Positions 4,213 to 42,303 of a stretch of 64,000 nt of DNA are shown one piece after another. Position 1 is the stretch's first letter. The number at the start of each line of letters is the position of its first letter. Origin of the DNA: Bacteroidota bacterium (GTDB lineage Bacteria > Bacteroidota > Bacteroidia > Bacteroidales > UBA4417); the NCBI GenBank assembly GCA_013376995.1, contig JACAAZ010000007.1, forward strand, positions 135,373 through 199,372. Direction: 5' to 3'. The notes below the pieces were generated by a model, which did no database searches, was not told where the DNA came from, and saw only the letters and a list, made by a program, of their open reading frames with translations. A program made the translations under genes and the position numbers.

Positions 4213-4220
4213 TAAATTTG
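4213..4220 (+). promoter_or_regulatory. candidate -7 box TAAATTTG upstream of the cytochrome cluster
   Basis: TAnnTTTG match 53 nt upstream of the ATG at 4274. It is the only such match I saw ahead of the five-gene cluster. Confidence 0.35.
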
Positions 4221-4273
4221 ACATTAAGTTCGGATTAGTTAATAATATTTTCACACTAACTCTTGCTGATAAT

Positions 4274-5140
4274 ATGTCACTTGGCCACAAATTTTACCTT
4301 TTCCTGTTAACAATTATCACTCTAGCTGTTCTGGCCTATCTATCGTTTCATGGTTGGAATTATTATCAAACAAACCTTGAAGACCGGTTTTTTCATCCTG
4401 ATTATGCATCTCTGAAACCAAGCGGGATTTTCGGACATGGCTATGGAATTATTGGTTCATTGTGCATGTTGTTAGGCGTAGTATTATATATAGCCAGGAA
4501 ACGGCTTCGCAGCTGGTCGAGGATTGGCCTGCTCAAGCATTGGCTGGAGTTTCATATTTTTCTTTGCACAGTTGGTCCTATCCTTGTCCTCTATCATACA
4601 ACATTCAAATTCGGAGGATTGGTAGCCGTTAGTTTCTGGAGTATGGTTGCTGTGTTTGCTTCCGGTGTTATAGGCCGGTTCATTTATATCCAGATCCCGC
4701 GGACCATTGAAGGACGCGAGTTAAGCCTCAGTGAGGTTCGTGACATGAAGAGTAATATTGGACAGGTTCTATCTGAATCTTATCACCTGGATGAGGACTC
4801 TTTTAACCTGATCGTTGAATCTACAAGGAAGAAGATAGAAGTAATAGATTCAAACATTATTGCCAGGTATTTCAAAAAATATTCAGCTGACACAAAAGCT
4901 ATAAAGGCAGTGCATTCTGCTTTGTCAAAGAATAACTTATCAAAATCTGAAACCAGGGAATTATTAAGGCTGGTAAAGCACGATATCTCGCTCAACAGGA
5001 GGATTGACAGGCTGGTAACCATGCAGAACCTTTTTAAATACTGGCATGTGGCTCATCTTCCCTTTGCTTTTGTCATGCTGATCATCATGGTCATTCATGT
5101 TGCTGTAACCGTCACTTTTGGAGCTCATTGGATTTTCTGA
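4274..5140 (+). CDS. polytopic membrane protein with two H-x13-H pairs (putative dihaem-b transmembrane electron carrier, ferric-reductase-domain-like)
   Basis: The ATG at 4274 is preferred over the TTG at 4202. About 5 TM helices are predicted. FH-IFLCTVGPILVLY-H lies in one helix and AH-LPFAFVMLIIMVI-H in another. A long soluble insert sits between them. Confidence 0.6.
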   Translation: MSLGHKFYLFLLTIITLAVLAYLSFHGWNYYQTNLEDRFFHPDYASLKPSGIFGHGYGIIGSLCMLLGVVLYIARKRLRSWSRIGLLKHWLEFHIFLCTVGPILVLYHTTFKFGGLVAVSFWSMVAVFASGVIGRFIYIQIPRTIEGRELSLSEVRDMKSNIGQVLSESYHLDEDSFNLIVESTRKKIEVIDSNIIARYFKKYSADTKAIKAVHSALSKNNLSKSETRELLRLVKHDISLNRRIDRLVTMQNLFKYWHVAHLPFAFVMLIIMVIHVAVTVTFGAHWIF

Positions 5141-5142
5141 TT

Positions 5143-6477
5143 ATGGAATTAGTTCTTGAACAAGCCCTCATTTACACTTTAGCTATCCTTTTTTGCCTGG
5201 CTGTGATCATTCTATACTTGTGGCGGCAAAAGAAAAAATCGCGTAAGGTTGAAGAAAAGATATTGAAAGCCAAGGCTGAAGGATTGTATGAACCTGTTTC
5301 ACTGCATCCTGTGGTTGACGTTAACAGTTGTATAAGGACAGGTGCCTGCATTTCTGCCTGTCCTGAGAAAGATATTCTTGGTATAGTTAACGGCAAAGCG
5401 ACAACAATCAATGCTTCTCAGTGCATTGGTCATGGCGCCTGTTTTCATGCTTGTCCAACGCAGGCAATTACACTGTGTATTGGTACTGAGCAAAGGGGAG
5501 TCGATCTTCCCCATATCAACGAGCTTTTTGAAACCAATATTAACGGAGTATATATCGCCGGTGAATTGGGCGGTATGGGACTTATTAAGAATGCCGTTCA
5601 ACAGGGAGGGCAGGCTGTTGAAAATATAGTTAAGTACAGTAACAAACATCATGAAGCAGAATATGACCTGGTGGTAGTTGGAGCAGGTCCTGCAGGGATT
5701 TCTGCTTCACTGACTGCAAAAAAGCATAATCTGAGATGTATTACCCTTGAACAGGATACCTTGGGTGGAGCAGTGTTTACTTTTCCACGAGCAAAAATAG
5801 TAATGACATCTGCCATGGAATTGCCTTTGTATGGAAAGGTGAAGCTTTCAGAAACAAGCAAAACCGAGTTGCTGGATTTATGGAAGGAAGTTATCGCCAA
5901 AAATAATATCCTGATTCGAGAAAATTCCAAAGTAGAATCAATTGAGAAGCTAAATGGATATTTTGAGTTGAAAACGTTAACCGGTGAGCGATACACTACA
6001 CATAACGTGCTTCTTTCAATTGGGAGAAGGGGTACGCCCAGAAAACTTGGAGTTCCAGGTGAACAGATGGAAAAGGTTGCATATCGCTTGCTTGATCCTG
6101 AGATTATTTCCGGAAAAGAGATTCTGGTTGTCGGCGGTGGAGATTCTGCCATCGAATCCGCCCTTCTCCTTGCTGATCAAAACAAGGTTATCCTGTCATA
6201 TAGGGGTGATGTTTTCAGCAGGATCAAACAAAAGAATAATGAGAAGATTCATGAGGCAGCAGTTTCGGGACTGGTAGATCTTCAGTTTAACACTGAACTC
6301 AGCAGGATTGATAAGGATTTCATTACACTATCAAATTCAAAAACCGGTAAGGAGTTGATCTACAAAAATGACCTTGTGTACATCTTTGCCGGTGGAGAAT
6401 TACCAACACAGTTCCTTGAAAAGGTCGGAATACAGATTACAAAGAAATTTGGGGAAGCCATTCTTAAACATAAATAG
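5143..6477 (+). CDS. membrane-anchored ferredoxin-domain / FAD- and NAD(P)H-binding oxidoreductase (thioredoxin-reductase-like fold)
   Basis: The ATG at 5143 lies 2 nt after the upstream stop. It has an N-terminal TM helix and Cys motifs CIRTGACISACP and CIGHGACFHACP. The dinucleotide folds are VVVGAGPAG and VVGGGDSAIE. Confidence 0.8.
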   Translation: MELVLEQALIYTLAILFCLAVIILYLWRQKKKSRKVEEKILKAKAEGLYEPVSLHPVVDVNSCIRTGACISACPEKDILGIVNGKATTINASQCIGHGACFHACPTQAITLCIGTEQRGVDLPHINELFETNINGVYIAGELGGMGLIKNAVQQGGQAVENIVKYSNKHHEAEYDLVVVGAGPAGISASLTAKKHNLRCITLEQDTLGGAVFTFPRAKIVMTSAMELPLYGKVKLSETSKTELLDLWKEVIAKNNILIRENSKVESIEKLNGYFELKTLTGERYTTHNVLLSIGRRGTPRKLGVPGEQMEKVAYRLLDPEIISGKEILVVGGGDSAIESALLLADQNKVILSYRGDVFSRIKQKNNEKIHEAAVSGLVDLQFNTELSRIDKDFITLSNSKTGKELIYKNDLVYIFAGGELPTQFLEKVGIQITKKFGEAILKHK

Positions 6478-6502
6478 TAACTCAGGAAAATTCCCTGGCG
6501 AA

Positions 6503-8317
6503 ATGAGATTCATACTTGCATCGATTGTATTTGCTTTATTGCTTTGTTGTGGTAAACACAGCCAGGCCCAGATATCACCAGGAGATCTTGCCGAGGTGCA
6601 TGCCCAGCTTGAAGGTATTTCGAACTGCACAAAATGCCATACCCTTGGTTCAAAGGTGTCGAACGAAAAATGCCTGCAATGCCATACTGAAGTAAGTGCC
6701 AGAATTAAAAGCCAGAAAGGTTACCATTCATCTGTTCCTGTTTCCGGTAAAGCTTGTGTGAGTTGTCATAATGATCATCATGGTAAGAAATTCCAGATAA
6801 TCCGTTTCAATCCGGAAAGTTTTGATCACTTGTTTGCCGGTTACAAACTCCAGGGTGCGCATGCTAAACAGGAGTGCAAGAAATGCCATAAGCCGGAGAA
6901 TATCAGTGTGCCTGCAATTAAGAACAAGAAGTTCACTTACCTGGGACTAAGCACTAATTGCGGATCCTGCCATACAGATTATCACCAGAATACACTTTCC
7001 CTGACTTGTTCAAATTGCCATGGCTTTGACAACTTTAAGCCTGCGGTTAACTTCATCCATAATTCGGCAAAATTCAAACTGAGCGGGAAGCACGTTGATG
7101 TGCCCTGCGTGAAGTGTCATAAGATCACGGTATTAAAGGGATTGAAGTTCCAGGAATTTACCGGAATCCCGTTCCAGGGATGTGTGAATTGTCATGATGA
7201 TCCGCACAACAATAAATTTGGCAAGCTTTGCAGTGACTGCCACGTTGTTGAGTCATTCCAGGATATCAAGGGAAACTCCAAAATTGATCACTCAAAAACT
7301 AACTTTAAACTCGAGGATAAGCATCAGCAGGTAGCATGCAAATCCTGTCATAAGGGAAATATCAGTGACCCGGTAAAACATTCAAAGTGCCTGGATTGTC
7401 ATCCTGATTTTCATAAGGCCCAATTTGAGAAGCAAGGTGTTAACCAGGATTGCTCAGTTTGCCATGATACCAAGGGGTTCAATAATACATCATTCACAAC
7501 AGGGAGGCACAAGGAAACGAATTATGCCCTTGAAGGAAAACACCTGGACGTTGACTGCCTGAAATGCCACAAAAAGTCAGATACCTGGAATTTCAGGAAT
7601 TTAGGGAAGCAGTGTAAGGATTGTCACAATGATTATCATGAGAAGCAGTTTGTTAACCAGGGAGGTGTTCAGGATTGTGCGGATTGTCATAATGTAGCCG
7701 GCTTCAGTAATGCCAACTACACAATTGAGCAACACGACAAGGGCAACTTCCAGCTTAAAGGTGCTCACCTTGCAACACCATGCAATGCATGCCATCTTAA
7801 GAATAATAAATGGGCGTTCAGAGATATTGGGAAAAAGTGTAAGGATTGTCACCAGGATATTCATCAGAATAGTATAGATATAAAATATTATCCTGATCAT
7901 TCCTGCGAAAGTTGTCACAACCCTGAGGAATGGGCTTCAATAGCATATGATCACTCTCAGACGAACTTTAAGTTGTCCGGAGTTCATGCTACAACTCCCT
8001 GCCGGAAGTGCCACTTTGAAAACAAGCCTGGAGGCCAGACCGAACAGCGATTTGCCGGGCTTCCACAAGATTGCAATGGCTGTCATACCGATAATCATAA
8101 TCATCAATTTGATGAAAATGGTAAGACTGAATGTATAAAGTGCCATTCCTCAGAGGCCTGGACCATCAAGGATTTTGATCATAATAAGACTGGATTTAAA
8201 CTGGATGGAAGACATGAACATGTGCCTTGTAATAAATGCCATGTGCCTGTTAAGGAACAGCAAATCACCTATGTATTGTATAAGATAAAAGATACGCGAT
8301 GCGAAAGTTGTCACTGA
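6503..8317 (+). CDS. multihaem c-type cytochrome, 23 CxxCH motifs
   Basis: The ATG at 6503 follows the upstream stop at 6477. It has a signal peptide (MRFILASIVFALLLCCGKHSQAQ). I counted 23 CxxCH motifs in 604 aa, with recurrent CxxCHxDxH...F modules. Confidence 0.9.
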   Translation: MRFILASIVFALLLCCGKHSQAQISPGDLAEVHAQLEGISNCTKCHTLGSKVSNEKCLQCHTEVSARIKSQKGYHSSVPVSGKACVSCHNDHHGKKFQIIRFNPESFDHLFAGYKLQGAHAKQECKKCHKPENISVPAIKNKKFTYLGLSTNCGSCHTDYHQNTLSLTCSNCHGFDNFKPAVNFIHNSAKFKLSGKHVDVPCVKCHKITVLKGLKFQEFTGIPFQGCVNCHDDPHNNKFGKLCSDCHVVESFQDIKGNSKIDHSKTNFKLEDKHQQVACKSCHKGNISDPVKHSKCLDCHPDFHKAQFEKQGVNQDCSVCHDTKGFNNTSFTTGRHKETNYALEGKHLDVDCLKCHKKSDTWNFRNLGKQCKDCHNDYHEKQFVNQGGVQDCADCHNVAGFSNANYTIEQHDKGNFQLKGAHLATPCNACHLKNNKWAFRDIGKKCKDCHQDIHQNSIDIKYYPDHSCESCHNPEEWASIAYDHSQTNFKLSGVHATTPCRKCHFENKPGGQTEQRFAGLPQDCNGCHTDNHNHQFDENGKTECIKCHSSEAWTIKDFDHNKTGFKLDGRHEHVPCNKCHVPVKEQQITYVLYKIKDTRCESCH

Positions 8318-11142
8318 TAATTCTGCTTGTAGTTGTTGTGATGTCAGCAAAATTGCTGTCTCCGTCACCACATGGCCCTGACTTCAAGATAAGTTGCGGA
8401 GTATGTCATAGCGCCAAGGGTTGGGATTACGACAGGAATGTTTCCACTTTTCGGCATGATTCTACCGGGTTCATGCTGCTTGGCCAGCATAATTCAGTAA
8501 GCTGTAAAGCTTGTCATTCAACCCTTGTTTTTTCTGAGGCCAGGGGTAAGCAGAATTGCAATGCATGTCATGCCGATATCCATGAACAGACGCTTGGAAA
8601 TGATTGCGGAAGATGTCACACTCCTTCAGCCTGGCTGGTAAATAATATCACTGACCTGCACTTGAAAAGCCGTTTCCCTTTACAAGGTAAACACGCCATA
8701 GCTGACTGTTATTCATGTCATAAATCGGGCTCACTTCATCGTTTCGATCCCTTGGGAACAGAATGTTACGACTGTCACAGGACTGATTTTGAAGCTACGG
8801 CTCACCCTAACCATGTTCAGGGAGGGTTTTCCACAAACTGTTCAGAATGTCATATGGTTACAGGGTTCAATTGGAATAGTACCAATATCAACCATTCCTT
8901 TTTCCCGTTAACCGGAGGGCATTCACTTGATTGCAGCAGATGCCATACAAGCGGCAGTTATTCCGGCCTTTCCAGGTCCTGTGAATCCTGTCATCAGAAA
9001 GATTATAGTTCAGCCAACAATCCCAGCCACCAGGATCTGAACTTTCCTCTAGATTGTTCCCTCTGTCATACTACCAGCCCTGGATGGAAACCGGCTGAAT
9101 ACAAGGATCATGACAGCAGGTTCTTCCCCATATACTCCGGAAAGCACAATGGAGTCTGGAATGCCTGTTCGGATTGTCATGCCAACCCTTCGAATTACGC
9201 AATTTTCAGCTGTGTAAGCTGTCATGATCATAATCAAACATCGACAGACGAAGCCCATAGCAGTGTTGGTGGATATGTTTACAGCAGTGATGCATGTTTT
9301 CAGTGCCATCCCCAGGGAAGTGCAACCGGATCCTTTAATCACTCTACTTCCGGATTCCCGCTTACAGGCGCTCATTCAACCACACCATGCAGTCAATGTC
9401 ATGCAAACGGTTATGCAGGGACAACGACAGTGTGTGCGGATTGCCATACCAATAATTATAACCAGACCACCAATCCGAATCATACAACTGCGAATATTTC
9501 AAACCAATGTGCGCTTTGCCATACAACGAATCCAGGGTGGAAACCAGCCACATTTCCTACTCATAGCACCTATTATGAATTGACCGGTGCTCATACCTCC
9601 GTGGATTGCAATTCATGTCACAACGGTAATTATTCGAATACACCTAATAACTGTGCAGGTTGTCATACCAATAACTATAACCAGACTGCAAATCCTCCCC
9701 ATGTTTCTCTTGGGCTGAGTACAGAATGCTCAACCTGCCATACTACAAATCCTGGCTGGAAGCCGGCAACTTTTGCGGTTCACGATACTTATTACGTTCT
9801 GGCAGGCATTCATACTACTGTAGCCTGTAGTGATTGTCATTCAGCTGGTATTTATACAAATGCTCCGACTACCTGTTATGGATGTCATGCCGCAAACTAT
9901 AACCAGACAACGAATCCTCCTCATGCTACTTCTCAATTTTCGACCGATTGTGCCTCCTGCCATACGCAAACTGCATGGGTTCCTGCAACATTCGACCATG
10001 ATAACCAATACTTTCCTATCTATTCAGGGAAGCATAATAACCAATGGACACTTTGTTCTGAATGCCATTCGAATCCGGCAAACTATGCACAATTCAGTTG
10101 TATTGACTGCCATTCACATAGTAATAAGACAGAAGTTGATAACCAGCATTCAGGAGTAGGTGGTTATGCATACAATAGCCCGGCATGCTACGCCTGTCAT
10201 CCAACAGGATCAACGGCGGGTGCCTTTAATCACGGAACATCTCCTTTCCCGTTAACCGGGGGACACCAGGGTGTTGATTGTAGTGCTTGCCATTCAAATG
10301 GTTATGTCAATACAAGTATGATTTGTAAGGATTGTCATACTCCCAATTACAACCAGACATCTAATCCTGTGCATGCCGCTATTGGCATTTCTACGGATTG
10401 CGCTGTTTGTCATACTACAAACCCTGGCTGGCAACCAGCAACTTTCCCAACTCATAATAATTATTATGCACTTACAGGAGCTCATTCAACGATTTCCTCA
10501 AATTGTGCATCATGTCATAATGGTAACTACAATTCCACCCCGAATGTATGTTCAGGATGTCACATGAACAACTATAACCAGACCAATAATCCAAGTCATG
10601 TGACACTAGGATTATCGAATGATTGTGCCACCTGCCATACAACAAATCCAGGCTGGACACCTGCGACTTTCTCCATTCACAACAATTATTATGTGCTTGC
10701 CGGTGCTCATATTTCTCTGGCTTGCAATACCTGCCATAACGGGAATTACAACAACATCCCGAATACCTGTGTAGGCTGCCACCTGACAGATTATAACCAG
10801 ACGAACAATCCACCTCATGCTTCAGCACAATATCCTACAGATTGCGAGAGTTGCCATACACAAACCGCATGGATTCCATCTACTTTCAATCATGACGCCC
10901 AATACTTCCCCATTTATTCGGGAGCACATAACGGGCAGTGGAGTACTTGTTCCGATTGCCATACAAATTCTTCAAATTACACGGTATTTACGTGTTTAAC
11001 CTGTCATGCGCAGTCGACAATGAACAATTCCCATAGTGGAGTCTCAGGATATTCGTACAATAGCAATGCTTGTTATCAATGTCATCCGAACGGTTCTTCC
11101 GGTGGGAAAATGAGAATTCAGAATAAGGATAAAATAGATTAA
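8299..11142 (+). CDS. giant multihaem c-type cytochrome, 37 CxxCH motifs
   Basis: It has its own signal peptide (MRKLSLIILLVVVVMSAKLL). I counted 37 CxxCH motifs in 947 aa, with repeated CHTxNYNQTxNPxH and CHTTNPGWKPATF modules. It overlaps the upstream gene by 19 nt. Confidence 0.9.
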   Translation: MRKLSLIILLVVVVMSAKLLSPSPHGPDFKISCGVCHSAKGWDYDRNVSTFRHDSTGFMLLGQHNSVSCKACHSTLVFSEARGKQNCNACHADIHEQTLGNDCGRCHTPSAWLVNNITDLHLKSRFPLQGKHAIADCYSCHKSGSLHRFDPLGTECYDCHRTDFEATAHPNHVQGGFSTNCSECHMVTGFNWNSTNINHSFFPLTGGHSLDCSRCHTSGSYSGLSRSCESCHQKDYSSANNPSHQDLNFPLDCSLCHTTSPGWKPAEYKDHDSRFFPIYSGKHNGVWNACSDCHANPSNYAIFSCVSCHDHNQTSTDEAHSSVGGYVYSSDACFQCHPQGSATGSFNHSTSGFPLTGAHSTTPCSQCHANGYAGTTTVCADCHTNNYNQTTNPNHTTANISNQCALCHTTNPGWKPATFPTHSTYYELTGAHTSVDCNSCHNGNYSNTPNNCAGCHTNNYNQTANPPHVSLGLSTECSTCHTTNPGWKPATFAVHDTYYVLAGIHTTVACSDCHSAGIYTNAPTTCYGCHAANYNQTTNPPHATSQFSTDCASCHTQTAWVPATFDHDNQYFPIYSGKHNNQWTLCSECHSNPANYAQFSCIDCHSHSNKTEVDNQHSGVGGYAYNSPACYACHPTGSTAGAFNHGTSPFPLTGGHQGVDCSACHSNGYVNTSMICKDCHTPNYNQTSNPVHAAIGISTDCAVCHTTNPGWQPATFPTHNNYYALTGAHSTISSNCASCHNGNYNSTPNVCSGCHMNNYNQTNNPSHVTLGLSNDCATCHTTNPGWTPATFSIHNNYYVLAGAHISLACNTCHNGNYNNIPNTCVGCHLTDYNQTNNPPHASAQYPTDCESCHTQTAWIPSTFNHDAQYFPIYSGAHNGQWSTCSDCHTNSSNYTVFTCLTCHAQSTMNNSHSGVSGYSYNSNACYQCHPNGSSGGKMRIQNKDKID
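9124..10905 (+). repeat. two tandem in-frame super-repeats (888 nt and 894 nt) inside the 37-haem cytochrome gene
   Basis: The units are delimited by the FPIYSG(K/A)HN motif at codons starting 9124, 10012 and 10906. Each unit carries 12 CxxCH in the same order. A third, partial unit (3 CxxCH) follows. Confidence 0.85.
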
Positions 11143-11152
11143 TGCGAAGCTT

Positions 11153-12775
11153 ATGAAGTATTTTGTGTGTTTTATTCTGATGATGATCGGTATTGCTGGT
11201 TTCGGCCAGGCCGGTAAGCAGGTGCTTGAGGGGTCGGTTACTTATATTACCTCTCAAAATGTTTATGTGGGTTTTGCTTCAACGAAAGGCCTGACCGCAG
11301 GAGACACGCTTTATATTCTAAAGGAAAATAATTCCATACCAGCGCTTTTAATTAAGGATCTTTCTTCCCGCTCATGCGTATGTATTGCGCTTAACAGCCT
11401 GGTCTTTACCGTCGGGGATAAGATAATAAGCGGTGAAAAGCTAGTAGCTATTGATTCCAACGCTGCATCTAAAAACCCTGAACCCGTGAAACCAGCCGAG
11501 GTAAAGGTTGATACAGCAACTTCTTCAGGGAGTGGCCAGCAAGCCAGGAAACAATTGATTACAGGAAGGATCTCGGTTTCTTCGAATACAGGTTTTTCAA
11601 ACGTTTCTTCAACAAATGAGCGAATGCGTTATACTCTGCAGTTGAATGCCAGGAATATTGGCAACTCCAGATTATCAGCCGAATCCTATGTATCTTTTAC
11701 TCATAGGAACAATGAGTGGAAGCAAATTAAAAGCAATATCTTCAACGGGCTTAAGATTTATAACCTTGCGTTGAGTTACGAGTTGGGGAAATATTCGCAC
11801 CTGAGTTTAGGCCGGAAAATCAATCCAAATCTATCGACGATGGGGGCTATTGACGGGCTTCAGTATGAGTTCAGGAAAAAGGAATTCAGTGCTGGTGTAA
11901 TTGCCGGATCACGGCCTGATTATAGTGATTACGGGTTCAATTTTAATCTGCTGCAGTATGGGGCGTATCTTGGTTTGGATCATCAAATGGGGAAAGGAAG
12001 CATGCAGAATTCCGTTGCGTTTATTGAACAGCAGAATTCCGGGAAAACGGATCGTCGGTTTGCTTATTTCCAGCACTCCAATACGGTAGTGAAAAACCTC
12101 TACCTCTATGGTTCTCTCGAAGTGGATCTTTTCATCAGGAAGATTGACAGTATCAGCAATAGCAGTCCCAGCCTGACTAACCTTTATGTTTCATTAAGAT
12201 ATAAAATAGGACAGAAACTATCACTTTCGGCTTCATATAGTTCCAGGAAGAATACCATTTATTATGAAACTTACCGGTTGCTTTACACTGAAAGCTATGT
12301 TGATATGATCAGGAATTCGTTGTCCAGCCAAACACAGGGTTATTTTGTGACAGCCAATTATCATACGAATAGCAGGTTGTTATTTGGACTGTCATCAGGA
12401 TACAGGTTCCAGAAGAATGATCCCAAACCGTCGAAGAACCTCTATGGTTATGCAACCTACCTGGATATGCCTGGTTTACATGTTTCATTCACTTTGTCTG
12501 CAACACTGATGCAGTCAACCTATCTTTCTGGTAATATTTTTGGACTCGGTATTTCGAGGGACTTCCTTAAAGGGAAGCTCTATGCGAATATCAACGTAAA
12601 GTATGCCAAATACCTCTATAGCAGTTTCGATGCAACTATCATGCAGTACTTGGGAGAAGCTGACCTGATGTGGCGAATCAGCCGGAAGCTGTCTTTATCA
12701 GTTGACTATAATACAACAATGGAAAAGACTGTGAAGTATGGAAGTGTTTATGTTCAGCTGAGTAAAAGTTTTTAG
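11153..12775 (+). CDS. outer-membrane beta-barrel protein (porin-like partner of the cytochromes)
   Basis: It has a signal peptide (MKYFVCFILMMIGIAGFGQA), a small N-terminal domain and a Pro/Lys/Ser linker. About 400 aa then show an alternating hydrophobic strand pattern. The C-terminus is ...YVQLSKSF (terminal Phe). Confidence 0.7.
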   Translation: MKYFVCFILMMIGIAGFGQAGKQVLEGSVTYITSQNVYVGFASTKGLTAGDTLYILKENNSIPALLIKDLSSRSCVCIALNSLVFTVGDKIISGEKLVAIDSNAASKNPEPVKPAEVKVDTATSSGSGQQARKQLITGRISVSSNTGFSNVSSTNERMRYTLQLNARNIGNSRLSAESYVSFTHRNNEWKQIKSNIFNGLKIYNLALSYELGKYSHLSLGRKINPNLSTMGAIDGLQYEFRKKEFSAGVIAGSRPDYSDYGFNFNLLQYGAYLGLDHQMGKGSMQNSVAFIEQQNSGKTDRRFAYFQHSNTVVKNLYLYGSLEVDLFIRKIDSISNSSPSLTNLYVSLRYKIGQKLSLSASYSSRKNTIYYETYRLLYTESYVDMIRNSLSSQTQGYFVTANYHTNSRLLFGLSSGYRFQKNDPKPSKNLYGYATYLDMPGLHVSFTLSATLMQSTYLSGNIFGLGISRDFLKGKLYANINVKYAKYLYSSFDATIMQYLGEADLMWRISRKLSLSVDYNTTMEKTVKYGSVYVQLSKSF

Positions 12776-12779
12776 GTTT

Positions 12780-14228
12780 TTACCTTGTAGATTTCACAAT
12801 TCTATTGACAAATTCTACCAATAACCTGATACCCACAGCTGTTCCACCGGCTGTCCTATAGCCATCCTTTTTATCAAGAAATGCAATCCCGGCAATATCC
12901 AGGTGAATCCATGGATAATCCGTAAAATGTTCAAGAAATTTACCGGCAGTAATTGCTCCGGCATGTGGTCCGCCTATGTTTTTCAGGTCGGCTATTTCCG
13001 ATTTAATCAGTTCTGAGTATTCATCCCAGAAAGGAAATTCAGCGATACGCTCATGAACCTTTAAGCCGGCATCTTTTAATTCGTTCATGTATTTCGAGGC
13101 ACCTGAATGCATCCCAACCATGCCAAATTTGCCAATAGCAACCTGTGCAGCACCTGTAAGGGTTGCCAGGTCAATTACCAGTTTCGGATTATAGTTTTTA
13201 GCATAGGAAAGCGCATCAGCCAGCAGCAGGCGCCCTTCAGCATCCGTATTCAGGACTTCCACAGTTGTGCCATCCATCATGGTTATAATATCTCCGGGAA
13301 CATAGGCATTTCCATCAGGCCTGTTATCGGTGGCCGGAAGAAGGGCAACTACATGTAGAGGAAGTTGTAATTTTGCAATGGCATAGATGGCAGCTGCAAC
13401 CGTTGCAGCACCGGCCATGTCACATTTCATGGTATCCATGCTGCTGTTGGGTTTCAGGCTTAATCCCCCGGTATCATAAACCACTCCTTTGCCTACGAGG
13501 ACAATAGTCTTGTCATTCACCGGATTGAGTGGGTTGTATTCCATAATGGTAAAGGTCGGGGGGTCAATACTGCCGCGATTAACAGCAAGCAAGCCTCCCA
13601 TCCTGAGGGCTTCAATCTTTTGCTTATTGAGGATTTCTACCTTTATACCAGCTTCCAGGCCCATCTTTTCAAATTCAAATGCCAGGGCTTCTGCATTCAG
13701 CGAAGATAAAGGCTCATTCACCAATGAACGGCAGCGATATACTGCAGCGCCCAAAACAGACAATTGTTCTACTTCGGCCTTGCTGATTTCTTTACTCACC
13801 AGTTCAATGGTTTTCAAAGGAGACTCCTTGTCGGATGCATCCTTGCGATACTTCAGGAACTGGTAATTTCCCAGCATTAAGCCTTCTGCAAAGGCAAGGA
13901 CAATTTTCGGGAAGATACCGCTATCATAAATTATCAGCTTTTCAATTTTATGCTCATGAATGGCAGGGAGCAGGCTTTCACCTTTTCTGCGCCACTTCTC
14001 AAGCTTTGCAGGAGTCGGCTTTTGTTTTTCAATGCGGCAGATGAATATGAAACTTCCCAGCCGATCCATGAGAACCATATCTTTTGCCTTATCAGCAAAG
14101 CGTTTGCGGAGGTAGGAAAGTTCTTTTTCAGTGAACAGTTTTGGAGAAAGGTCCTTAATGGATGAAATCATCAGGACCGTATTGGACAAAGCCGTAGCTT
14201 TTTTTGATAAGACTATTTTTGGGAGCAT
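12780..14228 (-). CDS. pepA: leucyl aminopeptidase, M17 family
   Basis: Motifs VGKGVVYDTGGLSLKP and NTDAEGRLLLADAL; 482 aa. Confidence 0.92.
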   Translation of the reverse strand: MLPKIVLSKKATALSNTVLMISSIKDLSPKLFTEKELSYLRKRFADKAKDMVLMDRLGSFIFICRIEKQKPTPAKLEKWRRKGESLLPAIHEHKIEKLIIYDSGIFPKIVLAFAEGLMLGNYQFLKYRKDASDKESPLKTIELVSKEISKAEVEQLSVLGAAVYRCRSLVNEPLSSLNAEALAFEFEKMGLEAGIKVEILNKQKIEALRMGGLLAVNRGSIDPPTFTIMEYNPLNPVNDKTIVLVGKGVVYDTGGLSLKPNSSMDTMKCDMAGAATVAAAIYAIAKLQLPLHVVALLPATDNRPDGNAYVPGDIITMMDGTTVEVLNTDAEGRLLLADALSYAKNYNPKLVIDLATLTGAAQVAIGKFGMVGMHSGASKYMNELKDAGLKVHERIAEFPFWDEYSELIKSEIADLKNIGGPHAGAITAGKFLEHFTDYPWIHLDIAGIAFLDKKDGYRTAGGTAVGIRLLVEFVNRIVKSTR

Positions 14229-14834: not shown

Positions 14835-16628
14835 CTATTGTTTAATAAACCTGAGCGGGATAGATTCAGAATCTGAAGTATGAATTATATAAACTCCTGG
14901 ATCAAGTCTCTTTATATTTATTCTACCCTGTTTATCCGGTTTGACTTTGGAGACGCATTCACCACTAACTGAATAAACCGTTATTTCCTTAGGGGGAGTA
15001 GACCCGCAAATAGTAATTATATCTTTAGCCGGATTGGGATAGATGGTATAGTGCGAAATCCCGGCGGGGGCAATTCCTTGGAAAGAGTTCACCTCATACG
15101 CCCCTATATCAATCCTCCCACCATACACCCTGATCCTGCTCAAAAGGTCCGTAGTCCCTATTTGTGTGGGAGGATCTGTAGTACCCATGTTGATGCAGGA
15201 AGAAGATGGGCCAATATCCCAGTTTGATTCCGGATCAATGAACCAGGGATAGTATTTGCCGGCTTCGTTACCGGAATTTTCCGCTTCCAGTATTATAGTC
15301 CCGTTAGTGAGGTCGGTTGCACCCTGGATGGCATTGTTTAAACCACCGTCAATTCCTTCATCATTCTCATTGCCCCAGAATATAGAATTTACCACGGAGA
15401 GTGGTGCATAAATGCCATCTCCATATATGGCCCCGGAATTTTTGACTACCGTACAATTAATTATAGTACCCCCGTAAATACCAGCACCGTAAGACCGGGA
15501 GAATTCATGTTCAAGAATCCTGTTTTTGGCAATGAGCGAACCTGTCAGGTTTCCGTTATAAATATATATACCTCCTCCTGAAGGTATTTCTGCCATTTCC
15601 GGACCATAAACCTGGTTGTCGTGAATATTACAGTTGAGTATGTTGCTGTTTTCAGTGTAAATCCCACCTCCAAAGGTTTTTGAAGAACAATTCCTGATCT
15701 CGGAATTCTTCATCAGGCAGCCATTGGCAAGTGCCACTCCACCACCATAGGTGCCATAATTTCCATCATTTGAAGACAGATAACCTTCTGAAAATGTACA
15801 ATTATTGATCGAAGACTGATTTGCAAACAGGCATCCGCCAAAAACATCGGTGTAATAGGCGGGGATGATTCTACAATTACTGACAGTGCAGTTTTCGAGG
15901 GTGCTCATATTGGAATAGATACCTCCACCTGTTCCAACACCCCATGAAGCAACATTAACAGGTACCGAAGTGCAGTTTGTAACTTTTACATATCCAAGAT
16001 TACTTTTGAAAGCTGCAATTCCCGCTCCGTAAACCTGGTGTATTGTTTCATCTTCATTGTGACTATGATGTCCACAGTTGTTAACAATACAATTGCGGAT
16101 ATACCCGCTATCAGCAATAATGCCGGAAGCTATGGAGTCAATGGAGTATCCGTTTGTTATGGTGAATCCATCTATCAGTGTGTGATTGTCACCCTGAAGC
16201 ATTCTCAGGATATGATGAGTGTTGTTGGAACTGTCAGCATCACCCTGTAATTCACCGGTCAGGATACTTGCATTGGTAAACTCCCATGGTTCAATGGTGC
16301 CGTTACCATCCACATCACTTGTGGCTCTTTCTGATATGGAGGCCTCATTTCCAAGAAAACCGCCAAACATATAATTCCCGTTGTTCAGTATAAAGGAGGT
16401 AGTTGCATCTGTGTTATCTGCTTTATAAGTCCCGGCTGCCACCCAGATCTCGGAATTTGAAGCATTCTGAAGCACTGTACTTAAATTACCGGCTGCATTT
16501 GACCAGCTAGATCCATCGCCACTACTACCTGTTTTGACATAGATCCTGCCTTGCAGCTTATTCTGCTGGGCCAATAGGAAGGTAAAGGAAGAAAATACCA
16601 GGACTAAGAAGAAAATTGCTTTTTTCAT
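14835..16628 (-). CDS. secreted right-handed beta-helix repeat protein with T9SS C-terminal sorting domain
   Basis: It has a signal peptide, many GGGIY/GAGIY/NC(T/S) turn repeats and a DVDGNGTIEPWEF Ca-binding-like loop. The C-terminal ~80 aa (YTIYPNPAKDIITI...VYSVSGE...LDPGVYIIH) resemble a Por/T9SS CTD. Confidence 0.75.
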   Translation of the reverse strand: MKKAIFFLVLVFSSFTFLLAQQNKLQGRIYVKTGSSGDGSSWSNAAGNLSTVLQNASNSEIWVAAGTYKADNTDATTSFILNNGNYMFGGFLGNEASISERATSDVDGNGTIEPWEFTNASILTGELQGDADSSNNTHHILRMLQGDNHTLIDGFTITNGYSIDSIASGIIADSGYIRNCIVNNCGHHSHNEDETIHQVYGAGIAAFKSNLGYVKVTNCTSVPVNVASWGVGTGGGIYSNMSTLENCTVSNCRIIPAYYTDVFGGCLFANQSSINNCTFSEGYLSSNDGNYGTYGGGVALANGCLMKNSEIRNCSSKTFGGGIYTENSNILNCNIHDNQVYGPEMAEIPSGGGIYIYNGNLTGSLIAKNRILEHEFSRSYGAGIYGGTIINCTVVKNSGAIYGDGIYAPLSVVNSIFWGNENDEGIDGGLNNAIQGATDLTNGTIILEAENSGNEAGKYYPWFIDPESNWDIGPSSSCINMGTTDPPTQIGTTDLLSRIRVYGGRIDIGAYEVNSFQGIAPAGISHYTIYPNPAKDIITICGSTPPKEITVYSVSGECVSKVKPDKQGRINIKRLDPGVYIIHTSDSESIPLRFIKQ

Positions 16629-16900: not shown

Positions 16901-18004
16901 ATGGAAATTTCCTGGTTGATCAGTAAGGCATTGGATTTTGAATTTCTGAACCTGGAAGAAGGTTTATTTCTTTATGAACAAGCATCGACGGCAGAGTTGA
17001 TGTTTGCTGCCAATGAAATACGAACCATTTTGCACCCCGGTAATAAGGTTACCTGGCTCATTGACAGGAATGTGAATTATACGAATGTCTGTGTTTCAGG
17101 ATGCCAGTTCTGCAATTTCTATCGCTCAAAAAACAGCAGGGAGGCTTATGTTACTACTTTGGAGGACTATAAGCAGAAGATCGATGAACTTTTTGTGCTG
17201 GGAGGAGAGCAACTCCTTCTACAGGGTGGATTGCATCCGGGGCTGGGACTCGATTTTTACGTGGATCTTTTCAGGAACCTGAAAAAAATACAACCCAGGC
17301 TTAAACTTCATGCGTTGGGGCCTCCTGAAATTGTACATATAGCAAATATGGAAAGCCTGAGTTACAGGCATACGCTGGAAAAGTTAATCCAGGCAGGACT
17401 TGACAGTTTGCCGGGGGCAGGTGCTGAAATCCTGGTTGACCGTGTCAGGAGCCAGGTGTCGAAAAATAAATGCTCAGCTTCCGAATGGCTGGATGTGATG
17501 CGCGAAGCTCATAAACTTGGGCTGACTACTTCTGCCACGATGATGTTTGGGCATATTGAAACCAGGGAAGAGCGGATACAGCACATGATATCTATTCGGG
17601 AAGTCCAGGCAGAGAAACCCGGGAATGCAACAGGATTTATCTCTTTCATTCCCTGGCCATTCCAGGATGAAGGGACAAACCTTCAGAAAGTTCAGGGAGT
17701 CAGAAACCATGTCACCTCTGAAGAATATATACGTACCATTGCGATCAGCAGGATTATGTTGCCTAATATCCCCAATATCCAGGCTTCCTGGTTAACGGTG
17801 GGTAAAGAGATAGGACAAATTTGCCTTCACGCAGGGGCCAATGATTTTGGTTCGATTATGATCGAGGAGAATGTGGTATCCGTTGCCGGTGCTAAATTCA
17901 AGTTTGATAAAGAAGGCATTCAGCTGGCTATAAGGGAAGCGGGCTTTGAACCACAGTTGAGGAATCAGCAGTTTGAAGAGCGCACGCTTTCACCGGTTTC
18001 CTGA
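16901..18004 (+). CDS. mqnC: radical SAM menaquinone (futalosine pathway) enzyme, MqnC/MqnE family, MqnC-like
   Basis: CVSGCQFCNF radical-SAM CxxxCxxC motif, GGEQLLLQGG, and MMFGHIETREERIQH...FISFIPWPFQ. MqnC versus MqnE cannot be resolved by eye. Confidence 0.55.
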   Translation: MEISWLISKALDFEFLNLEEGLFLYEQASTAELMFAANEIRTILHPGNKVTWLIDRNVNYTNVCVSGCQFCNFYRSKNSREAYVTTLEDYKQKIDELFVLGGEQLLLQGGLHPGLGLDFYVDLFRNLKKIQPRLKLHALGPPEIVHIANMESLSYRHTLEKLIQAGLDSLPGAGAEILVDRVRSQVSKNKCSASEWLDVMREAHKLGLTTSATMMFGHIETREERIQHMISIREVQAEKPGNATGFISFIPWPFQDEGTNLQKVQGVRNHVTSEEYIRTIAISRIMLPNIPNIQASWLTVGKEIGQICLHAGANDFGSIMIEENVVSVAGAKFKFDKEGIQLAIREAGFEPQLRNQQFEERTLSPVS

Positions 18005-18118: not shown

Positions 18119-21100
18119 CTACAGTCCGTTTTTCTTTGCTGTTTGTGAATGTAAAGAAAAATAGAAGGTAGCTCCTTTATTCACCTGTCCCTCAGCCCAT
18201 ATTTCACCACCATGGCGCAGGATTATCCTCTGGGCAATAGCCAGACCAACCCCTGTGCCTTCAAACTCGGTGGCGGGATGAAGCCTTTGAAAGACCCCAA
18301 AGAGCTTGTTTTTGAATTCCATATCGAACCCAACCCCATTGTCCTGGATACTAAAGACCTGTCGATGTTTTTCGGTTGAACATCGTATGCAAACCAGGGG
18401 TTTCTCTCTTTTGGAACTGTACTTAATAGCGTTCAACAATAAGTTGGTCCAAACCTGTTTTATCATAATTGGATCTCCGATAGAAGCCGGCATTTCATCA
18501 ATCTGGAATTCAAATTTTGCCAGGGTTTCAGGATCCAGTATTTCATTGAGGATCGTCTGAATTATTTCATTCATATTGATCTCGGTCTTCATTATTTCTT
18601 TCCTGCCAAGGCGGGAGAATGCAAGAAGATCATCGATCAGGTGCCCCATTTTCAGTGAGTTCTGTTTAATGATAGAACATATTCGTTTGCCTTCGTCATC
18701 CAGTTTAGGGGCATAATCTTCCATCAGGATTTGTGAGAAGCCATTAATACTTCTAAGGGGAGAGCGAAGGTCGTGGGATACAGAATAAGAAAAGGCTTCA
18801 AGTTCTTTATTGGCAGCCTGTAACTGGGATGTTCGGTCAATTACGCGGTTTTCGAGATATGAATTAAGTGTTCTTACTTCTTCTTCTGCCCTTTTGCGTG
18901 CCGTGATGTCCCTGAAATACCATACTCTGCCCATATATTCTTCGTTTTTGTTAAACATTGGGGCTGAATATCGTTCTATGATTTTACCATCTTTGGGCCT
19001 TATCTCATCAAGGCTGAATTCATGGATGTTGTTAAAAATATCCCTGATCCGCTGAGTAAATTCTTCTTTATAATCAAACATTGAACTGATATATTCCAAC
19101 AAGGCGGCATCATCCTTCCCTTCAGTTATTTTCTTTGGAATTTTCCACATTTCTATCATTCGTTGGTTGAGTGAGAGGATTTTCGCGTTCTGATCCACAG
19201 TAAGTATACCATCCAGTGAAGCCTCCTGTTGCGTTTTGAGTATGAGATTTGAGAACTGTAATTCCGCTTCTGCTCTTTTTCTCTCAGTAATTTCATTACC
19301 CATTATCAACAGGTATGAATTTCCCCTTAGATCAACCTTTTCAACTGAAATGAGCATAATGCCGATACTTCCGTCCTTTTTATTGATCTCAACTTCTAAA
19401 TTGATTACCCTGCCAATTTTGCTGAGATTGTCCTTCATTTTTTGTCTCATCTCAGGGAATCTCCATAGATTCAGATCCTTAAAGCTGTGCCCGATGACTT
19501 CTTCCCTTAAATACCCGGTAACTTCAAGGAAGGCTTCGTTTACTTCGATCCATTTTTCGCTAGAGGGATCTGTAAGGCTGATGGGTATGGGGCTAGAATG
19601 GAATGAGGTAGAAAACAATGCTTCGCTTTCTTTCAGTGCGGCTTCAACTTCTTTCCGTTCGGAAATATCATTTACTAATCCCAGGATGCATTTTTCACCA
19701 TTGATTGTTATTATTTCAGATGATATCAAGAGATCCCGAATTTCTCCACTCTTTTTCCTGGCTTTTATTTCGAAATTACTGCAATGACCTGTTTGGTTGA
19801 GTAGCATAATCATTTCCCCGCGTTGTTCCGGCTTTGCCCATAGACCCAATTCATCAGGCGAGCTTCCCAGCATTTCTTCACGTGAATATCCATGTAAATT
19901 TGCAAATGCCTGATTAAGATCAACAATTTTGCTTGACGTCAATTCTGTTATAACGATACCTGTAGGGCTATTTTGGAAGACAATGGAAAGCCTTTCCTCG
20001 CTTTCTTTCAGTTTTTTTGCAGAGTTCCTGCTCTCTGTGATATCATGTGTTGAGCTAATAATATGGTGGACCCCGTTTAGTTCAATGACGGATGCTGACA
20101 TTCGGCCATACCTGATTGTACCGTCCTTTCTGCGGAATCGGGCTTCCAGGTTATGAACCGCCCCATCTTTCTTTAATCCTTCCACCAACCGATTCCTGTC
20201 ATTAAGATCTTCCCATATATCCAATTCAATGGAGCTTTTCCCTAATACTTCAGCTTCCGTGTACCCAAGAATGTTGGTAAAGCCTTGATTGATTGATATA
20301 TATAGCCCATCTGACATCCGGTTGATGTTTATTGAGTCAGGGCTTGTTAAGAAACCTTTTCGGAATTTTTCCTCACTATCACGCAATTCTTTTTCCACCT
20401 GTTTGCGCTCCATGATATTTCTGGAAACTCCATACACTTCAATATGGCCAGAATCCTGGTTTAGTACCAGACGAGTTGTAGTTTCAGTCCATACCGTAGA
20501 ACCATCTTTACAATATTCTTCGATTTCATCCAAATATGCTTTCCTGATACCATTTTTGAAATCATTGATACGCTGAGGCAAGGATGCAGTTAGATTTTTT
20601 GCAGTTGGAGGTGTTATTCCGCTCATACCATCTTGTTTCATGACTTCTTCAACAGTATATCCGCGTAACCTGATTACAGAAGGACTTACATACAGGAACC
20701 GGGAAGTTTGCAAGTCCATTATCCAGATTACATCCGAAATATTTTCAGCCAGGAGGCGGTATTTCCTTTCGCTTTCCTTTAGTGCTTCTTCAGCTTGTTT
20801 ACGCTGGGTAATAACTTCAGAAAAGAGAATTATTCCTCCAACTTCACCAGGTTTCTCAAACCAGGGGTGAATTTCCCAACGAACCCAGTCAAGGTTGCCA
20901 TCTTCTCTCGGGAAAGTATCTTCCTGGGCTGATGCTATTCCTCCGTTAAGGCATAACTGATGAATTGCTTTCCAGCGATCGGGTATTTCCGGAAAGACCG
21001 CATAATGTGAACGACCTATGATATTTTTATCCGAGATCCGGTAATCTTCAAGAAATCTCCGGCTAACAGAAATATACCTCATTTCCCGGTCGAACATCGC

Positions 21101-26714: not shown

Positions 26715-26810
26715 TTATATCTTTTTGTATTTCTATTATCAGTTGAGCCTTTATTATCAATCTAATGTTTCGGGCGCCATATGTGATTATAAACACAATA
26801 GGCACAATAG

Positions 26811-28241: not shown

Positions 28242-28250
28242 CTAGCGGAA

Positions 28251-30143: not shown

Positions 30144-30203
30144 AAGTTAGTAGTCGTATTTGTAAGTTAAAAAGCTTCAAAATTCATCCCTGGGTGGAGC
30201 TGT

Positions 30204-30512
30204 TTACCACTTTAACCTGTTGAGCAGGTGTATATCTACCGAATGTGTGTGCCTGTAAACCATAACAAGTATTGCAAGCCCGATGGCTACCTCAGCTGCT
30301 GCTACTACCATAATGAAGAATACAAATACCTGACCGGCCGGGTCGTTCATATATACCGAGAAAGCTGCAAGTAAGAGATTGATGGAGTTCAGCATCAATT
30401 CGATAGACATAAAGATGGACAAGGCGTTTCGTTTGATCAGTACACCCGCCACCCCGATGGAAAAGAGGACTGTGCAGAACACCAGGTAATCATTCATTGA
30501 AATTGCATTCAT
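30204..30512 (-). CDS. nuoK: NADH-quinone oxidoreductase subunit K
   Basis: 102 aa with 3 TM helices (…AAAEVAIGLAILV…). Confidence 0.9.
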   Translation of the reverse strand: MNAISMNDYLVFCTVLFSIGVAGVLIKRNALSIFMSIELMLNSINLLLAAFSVYMNDPAGQVFVFFIMVVAAAEVAIGLAILVMVYRHTHSVDIHLLNRLKW

Positions 30513-30538
30513 ATTCTTAGAACTTGTAAAGTCGTTGG

Positions 30539-31030
30539 TTAATCTTTCTTACCCAGTAACACTGCTCCAACCATTGCGGAAAGGAAGAGTACTGATGAAA
30601 CCTCAAACGGAAGAAGGTATTCGTGGTATAATACTTTGGCGAGGCTTGATACCAGACCGATCTGGGTCATTGTGGGATCTTTTGCCATTACCACATCCGT
30701 TTGTTTCAAAACTCCCACCAGTGTGATCATGAGTATGCCACCCGCAGCCATGGCTGCCACCTGCACCAGGGCAGGCTTCTGGAACTCGCCTTCCTTGTTA
30801 AGGTTAAGGAGCATGACGGTAAACAGGAAGAGCACCATGATGGCACCGGCATAAACTATGATGTGCACTACAGCCAGGAACTGTGCATTGAGGAGAACAT
30901 AATGCCCTCCAAGGCAGAACATCGCCAGGGTAAGGTACAATACTGTATGTATTGGCTTCTTTGATATAACAACCATGAACGCCGAATACAAGGCCAGGAT
31001 ACAGAGAAAATAGAACAGATAAACCTTCAT
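30539..31030 (-). CDS. nuoJ: NADH-quinone oxidoreductase subunit J
   Basis: 163-aa membrane subunit in the conserved position. Confidence 0.85.
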   Translation of the reverse strand: MKVYLFYFLCILALYSAFMVVISKKPIHTVLYLTLAMFCLGGHYVLLNAQFLAVVHIIVYAGAIMVLFLFTVMLLNLNKEGEFQKPALVQVAAMAAGGILMITLVGVLKQTDVVMAKDPTMTQIGLVSSLAKVLYHEYLLPFEVSSVLFLSAMVGAVLLGKKD

Positions 31031-31079
31031 TCCTTGAAATTTCTATTTTTTGTAATGTGTTTGGTCAATAGTTGAACAA

Positions 31080-31667: not shown

Positions 31668-31697
31668 TATTTCCTGATAAAAGCAGTATTGACAAGA

Positions 31698-41417: not shown

Positions 41418-41443
41418 GATGCCTGTATTTACTGGCCGGTAGA

Positions 41444-42214: not shown

Positions 42215-42303
42215 GATGTAAAGGAAGATGAGGTGCAATTAACTGCAAAGATACAAATATCCTATATCTGTGGGGTTGATACTTCCTGCACTTCGCAATT
42301 ATG

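Follow-up and report, generated by a model that had tools for sequence, protein, structure and literature searches.

The described systems closest in layout to the gene cluster considered here are MtrCAB, MtoAB and PioAB of Shewanella, Sideroxydans and Rhodopseudomonas, in which a multihaem cytochrome c gene likewise lies directly adjacent to a barrel gene, and the OmaB-OmbB-OmcB and ExtABCD clusters of Geobacter, which likewise unite a porin and two multihaem cytochromes. Proteins through which extracellular electron transfer (EET) draws on the quinone pool include CymA, ImcH, CbcL, CbcBA and NetBCD. The flavin-based EET of Listeria (Ndh2, demethylmenaquinone, EetA/B and PplA) is a dedicated NAD(P)H-oxidising route by which a fermenter disposes of electrons, and the Hmc and Tmc systems of sulfate reducers link redox pools by means of a periplasmic multihaem cytochrome c, a membrane cytochrome b and a cytoplasmic iron-sulfur (Fe-S) protein encoded in one operon. 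Chains of c7-type trihaem units are known from the GSU1996 'nanowire' family. Uncharacterised porin-cytochrome clusters have been reported from metagenome-assembled genomes (MAGs) of Bacteroidetes, Ignavibacteria and Lentimicrobium (PMC6344600, PMC8258643, PMC7399161, PMC13013709), and a Lentimicrobium cluster, with 61 and 20 haems, is stated to lack synteny to any characterised module (PMC13013709, 2026). Here we analyse five genes, termed A to E, in a 64,000-nucleotide stretch of a Bacteroidetes MAG (contig JACAAZ010000007.1, positions 135,373 to 199,372; hereafter the window), where gene A bears the locus tag HXX13_08475. The five genes are one self-contained unit and, as judged from the sequences, their products very probably form one trans-envelope electron-transfer system, of whichever direction.

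Organization and conservation of the five-gene cluster

Gene positions were taken from the list of open reading frames (ORFs) of the window and from a separate gene call on the same contig (offset +1152), and both sources contain all five genes:

4274-5140, forward strand: gene A, 288 amino acids (aa), candidate dihaem cytochrome b
5143-6477, forward strand: gene B, 444 aa, Fe-S flavoprotein
6503-8317, forward strand: gene C, 604 aa, multihaem cytochrome c
8299-11142, forward strand: gene D, 947 aa, multihaem cytochrome c
11153-12775, forward strand: gene E, 540 aa, probable outer-membrane beta-barrel

The spacings, namely, gaps of 2 nt (A/B), 25 nt (B/C) and 10 nt (D/E) and an overlap of 19 nt (C/D), agree exactly with the original prediction, which had been made by a model from the sequence of the window alone. 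The open frame of A begins further upstream, at a TTG at 4202. A recount of the CxxCH motifs returned the predicted numbers, 23 in C and 37 in D, both of which have signal peptides; among ORFs of 100 aa or more, these two are the only ones in the 64-kb window with such a motif.

The linkage of the five genes was evaluated in the best 80 loci of a genome scan, all of them from Bacteroidota, of which the 50 that extend at least 6.5 kb past B were taken as informative. A to E occur together in 49 of the 50, in the same order in 48, and nine flanking window proteins have no counterpart beside the cluster elsewhere, so that the single unit proposed from the window was borne out by the survey. B adjoins A in every locus that reaches far enough past A, and E always follows D in the Bacteroidota loci. 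The barrel also keeps company with the cytochromes in relatives, even in distant lineages, as had been expected of a functional partner. Median identity to the window proteins falls from the inside to the outside of the envelope, namely, 71% for B, 62% for A, 49% for D, 47% for C and 45% for E.

A relative of A is present in at least 575 species-representative genomes, the sources of the carriers being mostly lakes, sediments, aquifers and bioreactors. The carrier lineages include Bacteroidales, Prolixibacteraceae, Draconibacterium, Lentimicrobiaceae, Salinivirgaceae, Marinilabiliales, Labilibaculum and Sunxiuqinia. Within Labilibaculum, the cluster is carried by a MAG (L081) and by the cultured L. 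antarcticum SPP2 (L090, AP018042.1, 1396897-1404263), and homologues of A were also found in L. euxinus, L. sp. DW002 and Ancylomarina.

Two further features border the cluster:

4213-4246, forward strand: promoter-like region upstream of A, with a TAAATTTG box overlapping TTGACA-17-AATAAT
12780-14228, reverse strand: M17 aminopeptidase gene, convergent, directly after E

The second of these is the convergent gene that had been predicted to follow E. With respect to the first, TAAATTTG, a Bacteroidota -7-type box, occupies 4213-4220, and the TAnnTTTG box that the single-operon proposal had placed at 4213 is thus present; the motif is, however, not enriched in the window (46 found versus 58 expected), and we dropped it as promoter evidence for being statistically uninformative. 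The highest-scoring sigma-70-like site between 3900 and 13100 is TTGACA-17-AATAAT at 4218-4246 (11/12). These features weakly suggest that 4213-4246 is the promoter of the cluster.

Predicted properties of the five proteins

Hydropathy and an AlphaFold2 (AF2) model agree on five transmembrane (TM) helices in A (residues ~5-28, 52-77, 87-108, 116-139 and 255-281), and the model, built on a 42-sequence alignment, adds an insert of ~100 aa between TM4 and TM5 that forms four helices (residues 152-254). Its predicted local distance difference test score (pLDDT) is 87 and its predicted template-modelling score 0.79. The two H-x13-H pairs on separate helices that had marked A out at first, namely, H94-x13-H108 on predicted TM3 and H261-x13-H275 on TM5, are invariant in the 42 sequences, at identities down to 27%, and the same holds for G58, G131 and G134 on TM2 and TM4. 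In dihaem cytochromes b, His pairs 13 residues apart stand on two helices and conserved Gly residues on neighbouring ones, and this spacing matches two haems ~20 Å apart. The strongly basic loop RKRLRSWSR after TM2 suggests that the N-terminus of A is inside, its C-terminus outside and its insert cytoplasmic, a topology in which H94 and H261 would lie close to the cytoplasmic side of the membrane and H108 and H275 close to the periplasmic side.

No Pfam or NCBIfam family matches A above threshold. The weak matches of the family all fall on haem-b membrane families (sub-threshold Pfam: DUF4405 in 32/42 members, Ferric_reduct in 12/42, Ni_hydr_CYTB in 9/42 and PepSY_TM in 2/42), and a profile of A searched against PDB sequences returned only coiled-coil noise over the cytoplasmic insert. 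The family is large, with more than 7,600 clusters when sequences are grouped at 90% identity and 2,740 when they are grouped at 50%, none of which has a name. We regard A as a candidate dihaem cytochrome b, that is, a polytopic inner-membrane protein of an unnamed family.

B begins with one hydrophobic helix (residues 1-30) followed by RQKKKSRK, and the bulk of the protein is predicted to be cytoplasmic. The Fe-S, FAD and NAD(P)H domains that had been read from the window were all recovered: an Fe-S domain at residues 56-110 (Pfam Fer4_10, 40 bits, cut-off 25.5), and a flavoprotein part at residues 175-434 with two Rossmann domains of the thioredoxin-reductase/YpdA type (Pyr_redox_3, 126.4 bits, cut-off 30; Pyr_redox_2, 87 bits, cut-off 26.1) and the GxGxxG motifs GAGPAG at residue 180 and GGGDSA at 331. 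The closest PDB relatives are YpdA/Bdr and thioredoxin reductase (TrxR)-like FNR (E 6e-25). Because the domains are ordered anchor, Fe-S, flavin, the Fe-S clusters would lie at the membrane. The ferredoxin motifs, in contrast to the first reading, proved non-canonical, with three Cys each, namely, CxxTxxCxxxCP and CxxHxxCxxxCP (window 5305-5475, residues 55-111), the canonical pair of CxxCxxCxxxCP motifs (eight Cys, 2x[4Fe-4S]) being absent from B. The second motif, CxxHxxCxxxCP, is found in 80/80 orthologues and distant relatives; the first is CxxT/SxxCxxxCP in the Bacteroidales clade and the canonical CxxCxxCxxxCP in distant relatives. A missing second Cys is the usual sign of a [3Fe-4S] cluster, and His ligands are typically found on clusters where electrons enter or leave a transfer chain. 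The motifs of B point to [3Fe-4S] and/or His-ligated [4Fe-4S] clusters.

We also considered B as a thioredoxin or bacillithiol-disulfide reductase, and rejected this assignment on four grounds: B has no CxxC disulfide motif, its scores against the NCBIfam equivalogs are far too low (YpdA TIGR04018, 145.8 bits, cut-off 339.9; TrxR TIGR01292, 87 bits, cut-off 343), an Fe-S domain is fused to it, and it has a membrane anchor. Relatives of B carry the public (IMG) names 'thioredoxin reductase (NADPH)' and 'YpdA family bacillithiol system oxidoreductase', which on the same grounds are unlikely to be right. After the second GxGxxG, LSYRGDVFSRIK resembles the HRRxxFR 2'-phosphate site of thioredoxin reductase, and because of this TrxR-like SYR...R site NADPH is the likely substrate of B. 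A GD-like motif at residues 133-143, before the first GxGxxG, would fit a circular permutation of the FAD domain, but a second such motif stands at the usual C-terminal place.

C and D match the same two Pfam cytochrome models, C with 89.3 bits to Cytochrome_C7, in 6 stretches, and 64.8 bits to Cytochrom_c3_2, and D with 119.3 and 85.6 bits, respectively. Beyond those of the CxxCH motifs, C has 29 further His residues (23 motifs) and D has 41 (37 motifs), enough for bis-His ligation of every haem. The motifs of D are spaced 33/15/25 residues apart with a period of 3, which corresponds to ~12 trihaem units of ~73 aa. Tandem Repeats Finder detected no repeats in the DNA of either gene, and the haem repeats would thus be old and diverged rather than recent duplications. 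A phmmer search of C and D against the PDB returned nothing at E <= 0.01.

The two cytochromes differ in how their length is conserved. Exactly 20 CxxCH are found in 66/72 complete orthologues of C, the window copy having 23, and D orthologues have 13-64 (median 26), so that C and D together provide 33-84 haems per system. In C, a signal-peptidase I-type junction, AxA|QISPG, is conserved, and D has a signal peptide followed by SPHG; neither has a lipobox, and a type IX secretion system (T9SS) tail and a second hydrophobic helix are likewise absent from both. The mature N-terminal ends are conserved as QISPG(D/E)L..H..LEG..NCT.CH in C and SPHG...C..CH in D, and the last CxxCH of C lies 0-1 residues from the C-terminus in 67/71 orthologues, with haem motifs at both ends of the chains. 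In most related loci, as in the window (8299-8317), the start codon of D overlaps the end of C, which suggests translational coupling and an end-on contact between haems. A third multihaem cytochrome was seen in a few loci, namely, after E in L003 (17806-18894, 13 CxxCH) and L066 (14253-15923, 22 CxxCH), and between D and E in L085 (10570-11391, 9 CxxCH).

E has a signal-peptide-like N-terminus, a conserved small N-terminal beta domain, a low-complexity linker and a barrel-like part of ~400 aa with at least 12 alternating amphipathic segments. The terminal Phe on which the prediction of a barrel partly rested is at least 90% conserved in 30 orthologues. No family matches E above threshold; among the 30 orthologues, weak matches are scattered over DUF2490, Porin_4, OMP_b-brl and BBP2_2, and 0/30 match MtrB_PioB (PF11854) at E <= 1. 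A profile of E found no chain in the PDB, which presumably includes the solved MtrCAB complex. Weak but significant similarity does exist to barrel-like proteins near A in distant lineages (E 5e-16, 9e-12 and 1e-9). E is a probable outer-membrane beta-barrel of no described family.

Distant lineages and window neighbours

In distant loci, where A is only 28-33% identical, the parts of the cluster occur in shuffled order:

L085: A-B-C-D-multihaem cytochrome-E
L086: B-A-C-multihaem cytochrome-unnamed 446-aa protein
L087: C-D-E-(251 aa)-A
L083, Terriglobales (Acidobacteriota): E-like-(273 aa)-A-B, with a multihaem cytochrome upstream

In two of these, a sixth gene stands between the E-like barrel and A (L083, 7183-8004, 273 aa; L087, 6809-7564, 251 aa). 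Its two products are 36% identical to each other, with a hydrophobic, signal-peptide-like N-terminus and no Pfam family. The barrel of L083, of 993 aa, has a long AMIN-domain N-terminal extension.

An in-frame fusion of B and D was found at L091 (6527-9295) and L088 (2829-5111), on independent contigs from different metagenomes with a GC content of 68%, the order in both being A-C-[B::D]-E. A single ORF of 922 aa contains the whole of B, then a hydrophobic segment followed by a signal-peptidase-like site, AWA|A, and then a 19-haem D domain. Such a fusion speaks for B and D as parts of the same machine, and it fits a cytoplasmic B and a periplasmic D.

Around the cluster itself, we considered the flanking genes of the window as parts of the system, namely, those for a TonB receptor, the M17 peptidase, a DUF1648 protein, a T9SS protein, a radical SAM protein and a sensor kinase, and rejected them, given that none is conserved adjacent to the cluster. 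The genes beyond the aminopeptidase gene encode a T9SS-tailed 597-aa protein (14835-16628, reverse strand), a radical SAM/CofH_C protein resembling enzymes of the futalosine pathway to menaquinone (16901-18004, forward strand) and a 1475-aa multi-PAS/GAF protein (18119-22546, reverse strand); none of the three is conserved beside the cluster elsewhere. A complex I (nuo) operon at 25338-37446, on the reverse strand, includes NuoH-N, NuoD, NuoF and a short, 326-aa NuoG-like subunit, and with these genes ~12 kb from the cluster the organism also has an NADH-oxidising respiratory entry point. A run of genes at 40176-49434 (a Kdo transferase, a DegT-type aminotransferase, two NAD-dependent epimerase/dehydratases, an AMP-binding enzyme and a lipid A acyltransferase) belongs to envelope biogenesis and appears unrelated to the cluster.

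Cytochrome c maturation genes, whose absence from the window had been pointed out, were not found among 20 ORFs at 33-64 kb (Pfam) or among precomputed family matches at ~1-33 kb, shorter ORFs lying outside the scan. In L. antarcticum SPP2, positions 1-6192 of L090 hold a gene for a fused ResB-CcsA cytochrome c biogenesis protein (1025 aa) and NrfH/NrfA-type genes, 3-9 kb upstream of A-E.

Proposed electron path and comparison with known systems

We propose, with moderate confidence, that the cluster encodes a quinone-independent conduit in which electrons would flow from NAD(P)H through FAD, Fe-S clusters and two haems b to C, on to D and E, and so to the outside. First, B, held at the cytoplasmic face by its N-terminal helix, would oxidise NAD(P)H at FAD and hand on single electrons via the two atypical Fe-S clusters beside its membrane anchor. 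Second, A would pass them across the inner membrane through two stacked b haems, bound by H94/H261 towards the cytoplasm and by H108/H275 towards the periplasm. Third, C, as a chain of fixed length with 20-23 haems, would carry them through the periplasm, and D, as a variable chain of 13-64 haems, would carry them across the outer membrane together with the barrel E, to acceptors such as Fe(III)/Mn(IV) minerals, humics, electrodes or partner cells. C is placed in the periplasm because its length is fixed, and D at the barrel because it lies before E throughout and is not constrained in length. Gene content, motifs, conservation, linkage and the B::D fusion are seen in the sequences themselves; the order of C before D, which like cofactor binding, topology, direction of flow and acceptor we infer, is the least secure step.

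The role of such a conduit would be that of an electron sink regenerating NAD(P)+ in fermenting or anaerobic Bacteroidota. Export of electrons without protons would dissipate charge at the inner membrane, as NOX enzymes do, and the benefit would thus lie in NAD(P)+ regeneration for fermentation and not in proton-motive respiration. Such a role agrees with the physiology of Labilibaculum, whose isolates are fermentative Fe(III)/Mn(IV) reducers for which the genes are unknown (PMC5760507, PMC9765461); they direct a small share of their electrons to Fe(III)/Mn(IV) (PMC5760507; PMC9765461), and their metal reduction has been attributed to NrfHA (PMC9765461). It is tempting to go one step further and to see in the cluster a NOX-like, quinone-independent EET machine with 33-84 c haems, in which C would act as a periplasmic ruler and which would underlie 'fermentative' Fe(III), Mn(IV) and humic reduction, but this extended version we put forward only tentatively.

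Several observations weigh against the proposed path. At the inner membrane, a Foldseek search of the PDB with the model of A gave a best E of 0.67 and template-modelling scores of at most 0.3, none of the 50 best matches listed being a NOX, STEAP or MsrQ chain; Foldseek has little power on helical bundles, and A may still be distantly related to these folds. A may also have a quinone site. At the outer membrane, single-sequence AF2 modelling of E, for which a barrel had been predicted, gave no usable fold (pLDDT 30), and C and D, being neither lipoproteins nor T9SS-tailed, have no recognisable route to the cell surface. If D remained at the inner membrane, as the B::D fusion could indicate, the order of C and D would be reversed, although the AWA|A site after the hydrophobic segment may allow cleavage. 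Two A-B pairs have neither cytochromes nor a barrel adjacent to them (L071, 8973-11256; L079, 2923-7060), so that the A-B module may also serve other periplasmic acceptors. In L079 the gene after the pair encodes a BatD-family protein, which we take to be a member of the Bacteroides aerotolerance operon. Finally, the metal-reducing strains L. manganireducens and L. filiforme were not among the named matches of A. As a separate observation on L071, its A-B pair is followed by a convergent gene for an 816-aa protein, a putative glycosidase.

Of the alternatives, a conduit fed by quinol survives best, and we consider it unlikely. Here A would be a menaquinol dehydrogenase in the role of CymA, ImcH or CbcL that feeds C, D and E, and B would be accessory or regulatory, for instance in priming or protecting haems. 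Reactivity towards quinones is widespread among dihaem-b membrane proteins, the Ni_hydr_CYTB and NarI/FdnI-type families being examples, and members of the A family give weak Ni_hydr_CYTB matches; in the window, complex I with NuoF and the futalosine-pathway-like radical SAM gene make a menaquinone pool probable; and all characterised Gram-negative EET pathways begin at quinol (PMC6295460). However, B is the most conserved of the five proteins, it remains paired with A across very deep divergence and is fused to D in one lineage, its Fe-S domain beside the membrane anchor would be odd for a mere accessory, and A yielded neither a quinone-site motif nor a family assignment.

The lone A-B pairs, one of them beside the BatD-family gene, together with the lack of a recognisable surface-export signal on C or D and the presence of a TonB-dependent receptor gene upstream in the window, would also be consistent with a redox service confined to the periplasm, in which A and B export reducing power, C and D act as reductase or electron buffer, and E is a substrate porin. 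Oxygen or reactive oxygen species, sulfur compounds, soluble metals and assimilatory Fe(III) reduction would be its targets. This explanation is quite unlikely, given that 33-84 haems in long linear c7-type chains are typical of long-range transfer and not of catalysis, that neither C nor D matches a catalytic-type cytochrome family (NrfA, HAO, Cytochrom_C552), that E is strictly coupled to D in every lineage, and that the TonB receptor is not conserved beside the cluster. An inward or reversible conduit would deliver electrons via A and B to NAD(P)+, its donors being Fe(II), Fe(0), cathodes, reduced humics or partner cells. In its favour, porin-cytochrome systems can run both ways (PMC8258643) and many-haem chains can serve as capacitors. 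It is nevertheless very unlikely, since NAD(P)+ reduction (about -320 mV) is uphill from most extracellular donors, inward electrons would oppose the inside-negative membrane potential, the cluster is without an energy-coupling subunit, and the corrosion caused by Prolixibacter has been attributed to nitrite (PMC8368055).

If the NAD(P)H-fed conduit is real, it would differ in its bioenergetics from routes that start at the quinone pool, balancing redox without energy conservation of the respiratory type, and it would provide a concrete gene set for the 'fermentative metal reduction' observed for decades, including in Labilibaculum (PMC5760507). The cluster appears to be spread over anaerobic Bacteroidota common in anoxic sediment, and also Acidobacteriota, and current surveys that trace iron cycling by marker genes probably overlook it. 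The share of Bacteroidota in iron, manganese and humic cycling and in electrode communities may therefore be underestimated. The analysis also defines two families, the unnamed dihaem-b candidate (A) and the new barrel (E), besides the unusual His-containing Fe-S motif of B. Given that cultured carriers exist, the system is experimentally tractable.

Among the known systems, Hmc and Tmc are conceptually alike in combining a periplasmic multihaem cytochrome c with a membrane cytochrome b and a cytoplasmic Fe-S protein. They differ in having a NarI/HdrE-like b subunit and, on the cytoplasmic side, an HdrD-type CCG protein that lacks flavin; none of their components belongs to the outer membrane, and their electron flow is usually inward; family profile scans detected no sequence kinship between the cluster proteins and Hmc/Tmc subunits. 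The Listeria system differs in using demethylmenaquinone and flavinylated lipoproteins in a Gram-positive envelope, with no haems and no barrel.

C and D, like GSU1996-type polymers, are chains of c7-type trihaem units. Compared with the Geobacter conduit clusters, the gene order here is another, there is no lipoprotein cytochrome, and the haem chains are far longer; the inner-membrane partners in Geobacter, namely, ImcH, CbcL and CbcBA, are moreover quinol-linked. NCBIfam returned only far sub-threshold matches to ExtN/ExtO and GSU2203, and no OmbB model was among the matches, none having been queried directly.

MtrCAB has the same presumed job, that of carrying electrons across the outer membrane, and parts of C (43 bits) and D (54 bits) score above the cut-off of the MtrC/MtrF domain II/IV model, a likeness at the domain level only. 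E is without similarity to MtrB/PioB, C and D reach 34.7 and 33.3 bits against the MtrA/DmsE decahaem model TIGR03508 (cut-off 192.2), and the haem counts of the cluster are 20-23 and 13-64, as opposed to 10 in the Mtr decahaems. Unlike MtrC and OmcA, which are lipobox lipoproteins, C and D have signal-peptidase I-type junctions without a conserved lipobox Cys. At the input, a linked A-B module stands in place of CymA and quinol.

It is at this input that NOX/FRE and MsrQ-Fre offer the nearest parallel, since the principle would be the same, with NAD(P)H and a flavin reducing bis-His b haems (two or one) held between two His-bearing TM helices. The ferric-reductase pattern, namely, His pairs 13 and 12-13 residues apart on the third and fifth helices, appears to recur on TM3 and TM5 of A, and the ferric-reductase domain has its N-terminus inside, as hydropathy and charge predict for A. 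The resemblance to a split NOX that the original prediction had noted for the input module thus serves as a working analogy, homology to NOX not having been recovered. First, 0/42 members of the A family reach 28 bits against Ferric_reduct (PF01794), the best match, of 22.2 bits, lying over TM2-TM3, and Foldseek listed none of the solved relatives. Second, A has five helices and a large TM4-TM5 insert, as against the six-helix fold of NOX5, STEAP and MsrQ. Third, B is of the thioredoxin-reductase type with an added Fe-S domain, and not an FNR-type FAD/NADPH dehydrogenase as in NOX. Fourth, the acceptors of NOX and MsrQ are O2, Fe(III) and MsrP, whereas here the acceptor would be a chain of multihaem cytochromes.

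As to novelty, no characterised example of the synteny was found in the literature searched, which under-represents subscription journals, and the same literature held no mention of the A-B module, its linkage, a fixed 20-haem C or the breadth of the system. The claim that the architecture is new has accordingly to be divided, given that porin-cytochrome clusters of Bacteroidota had already been reported from MAGs. We considered the 'Bacteroidetes_1' cluster of Berger et al. as the same system and rejected it, its architecture being different, with six cytochromes and one barrel. The cluster with 61 and 20 haems (PMC13013709) fits the A-E family. The cytochrome-barrel part had thus been noticed earlier, and the new part, unreported in the literature searched, is the A-B module together with the strictness with which it accompanies the cytochromes.

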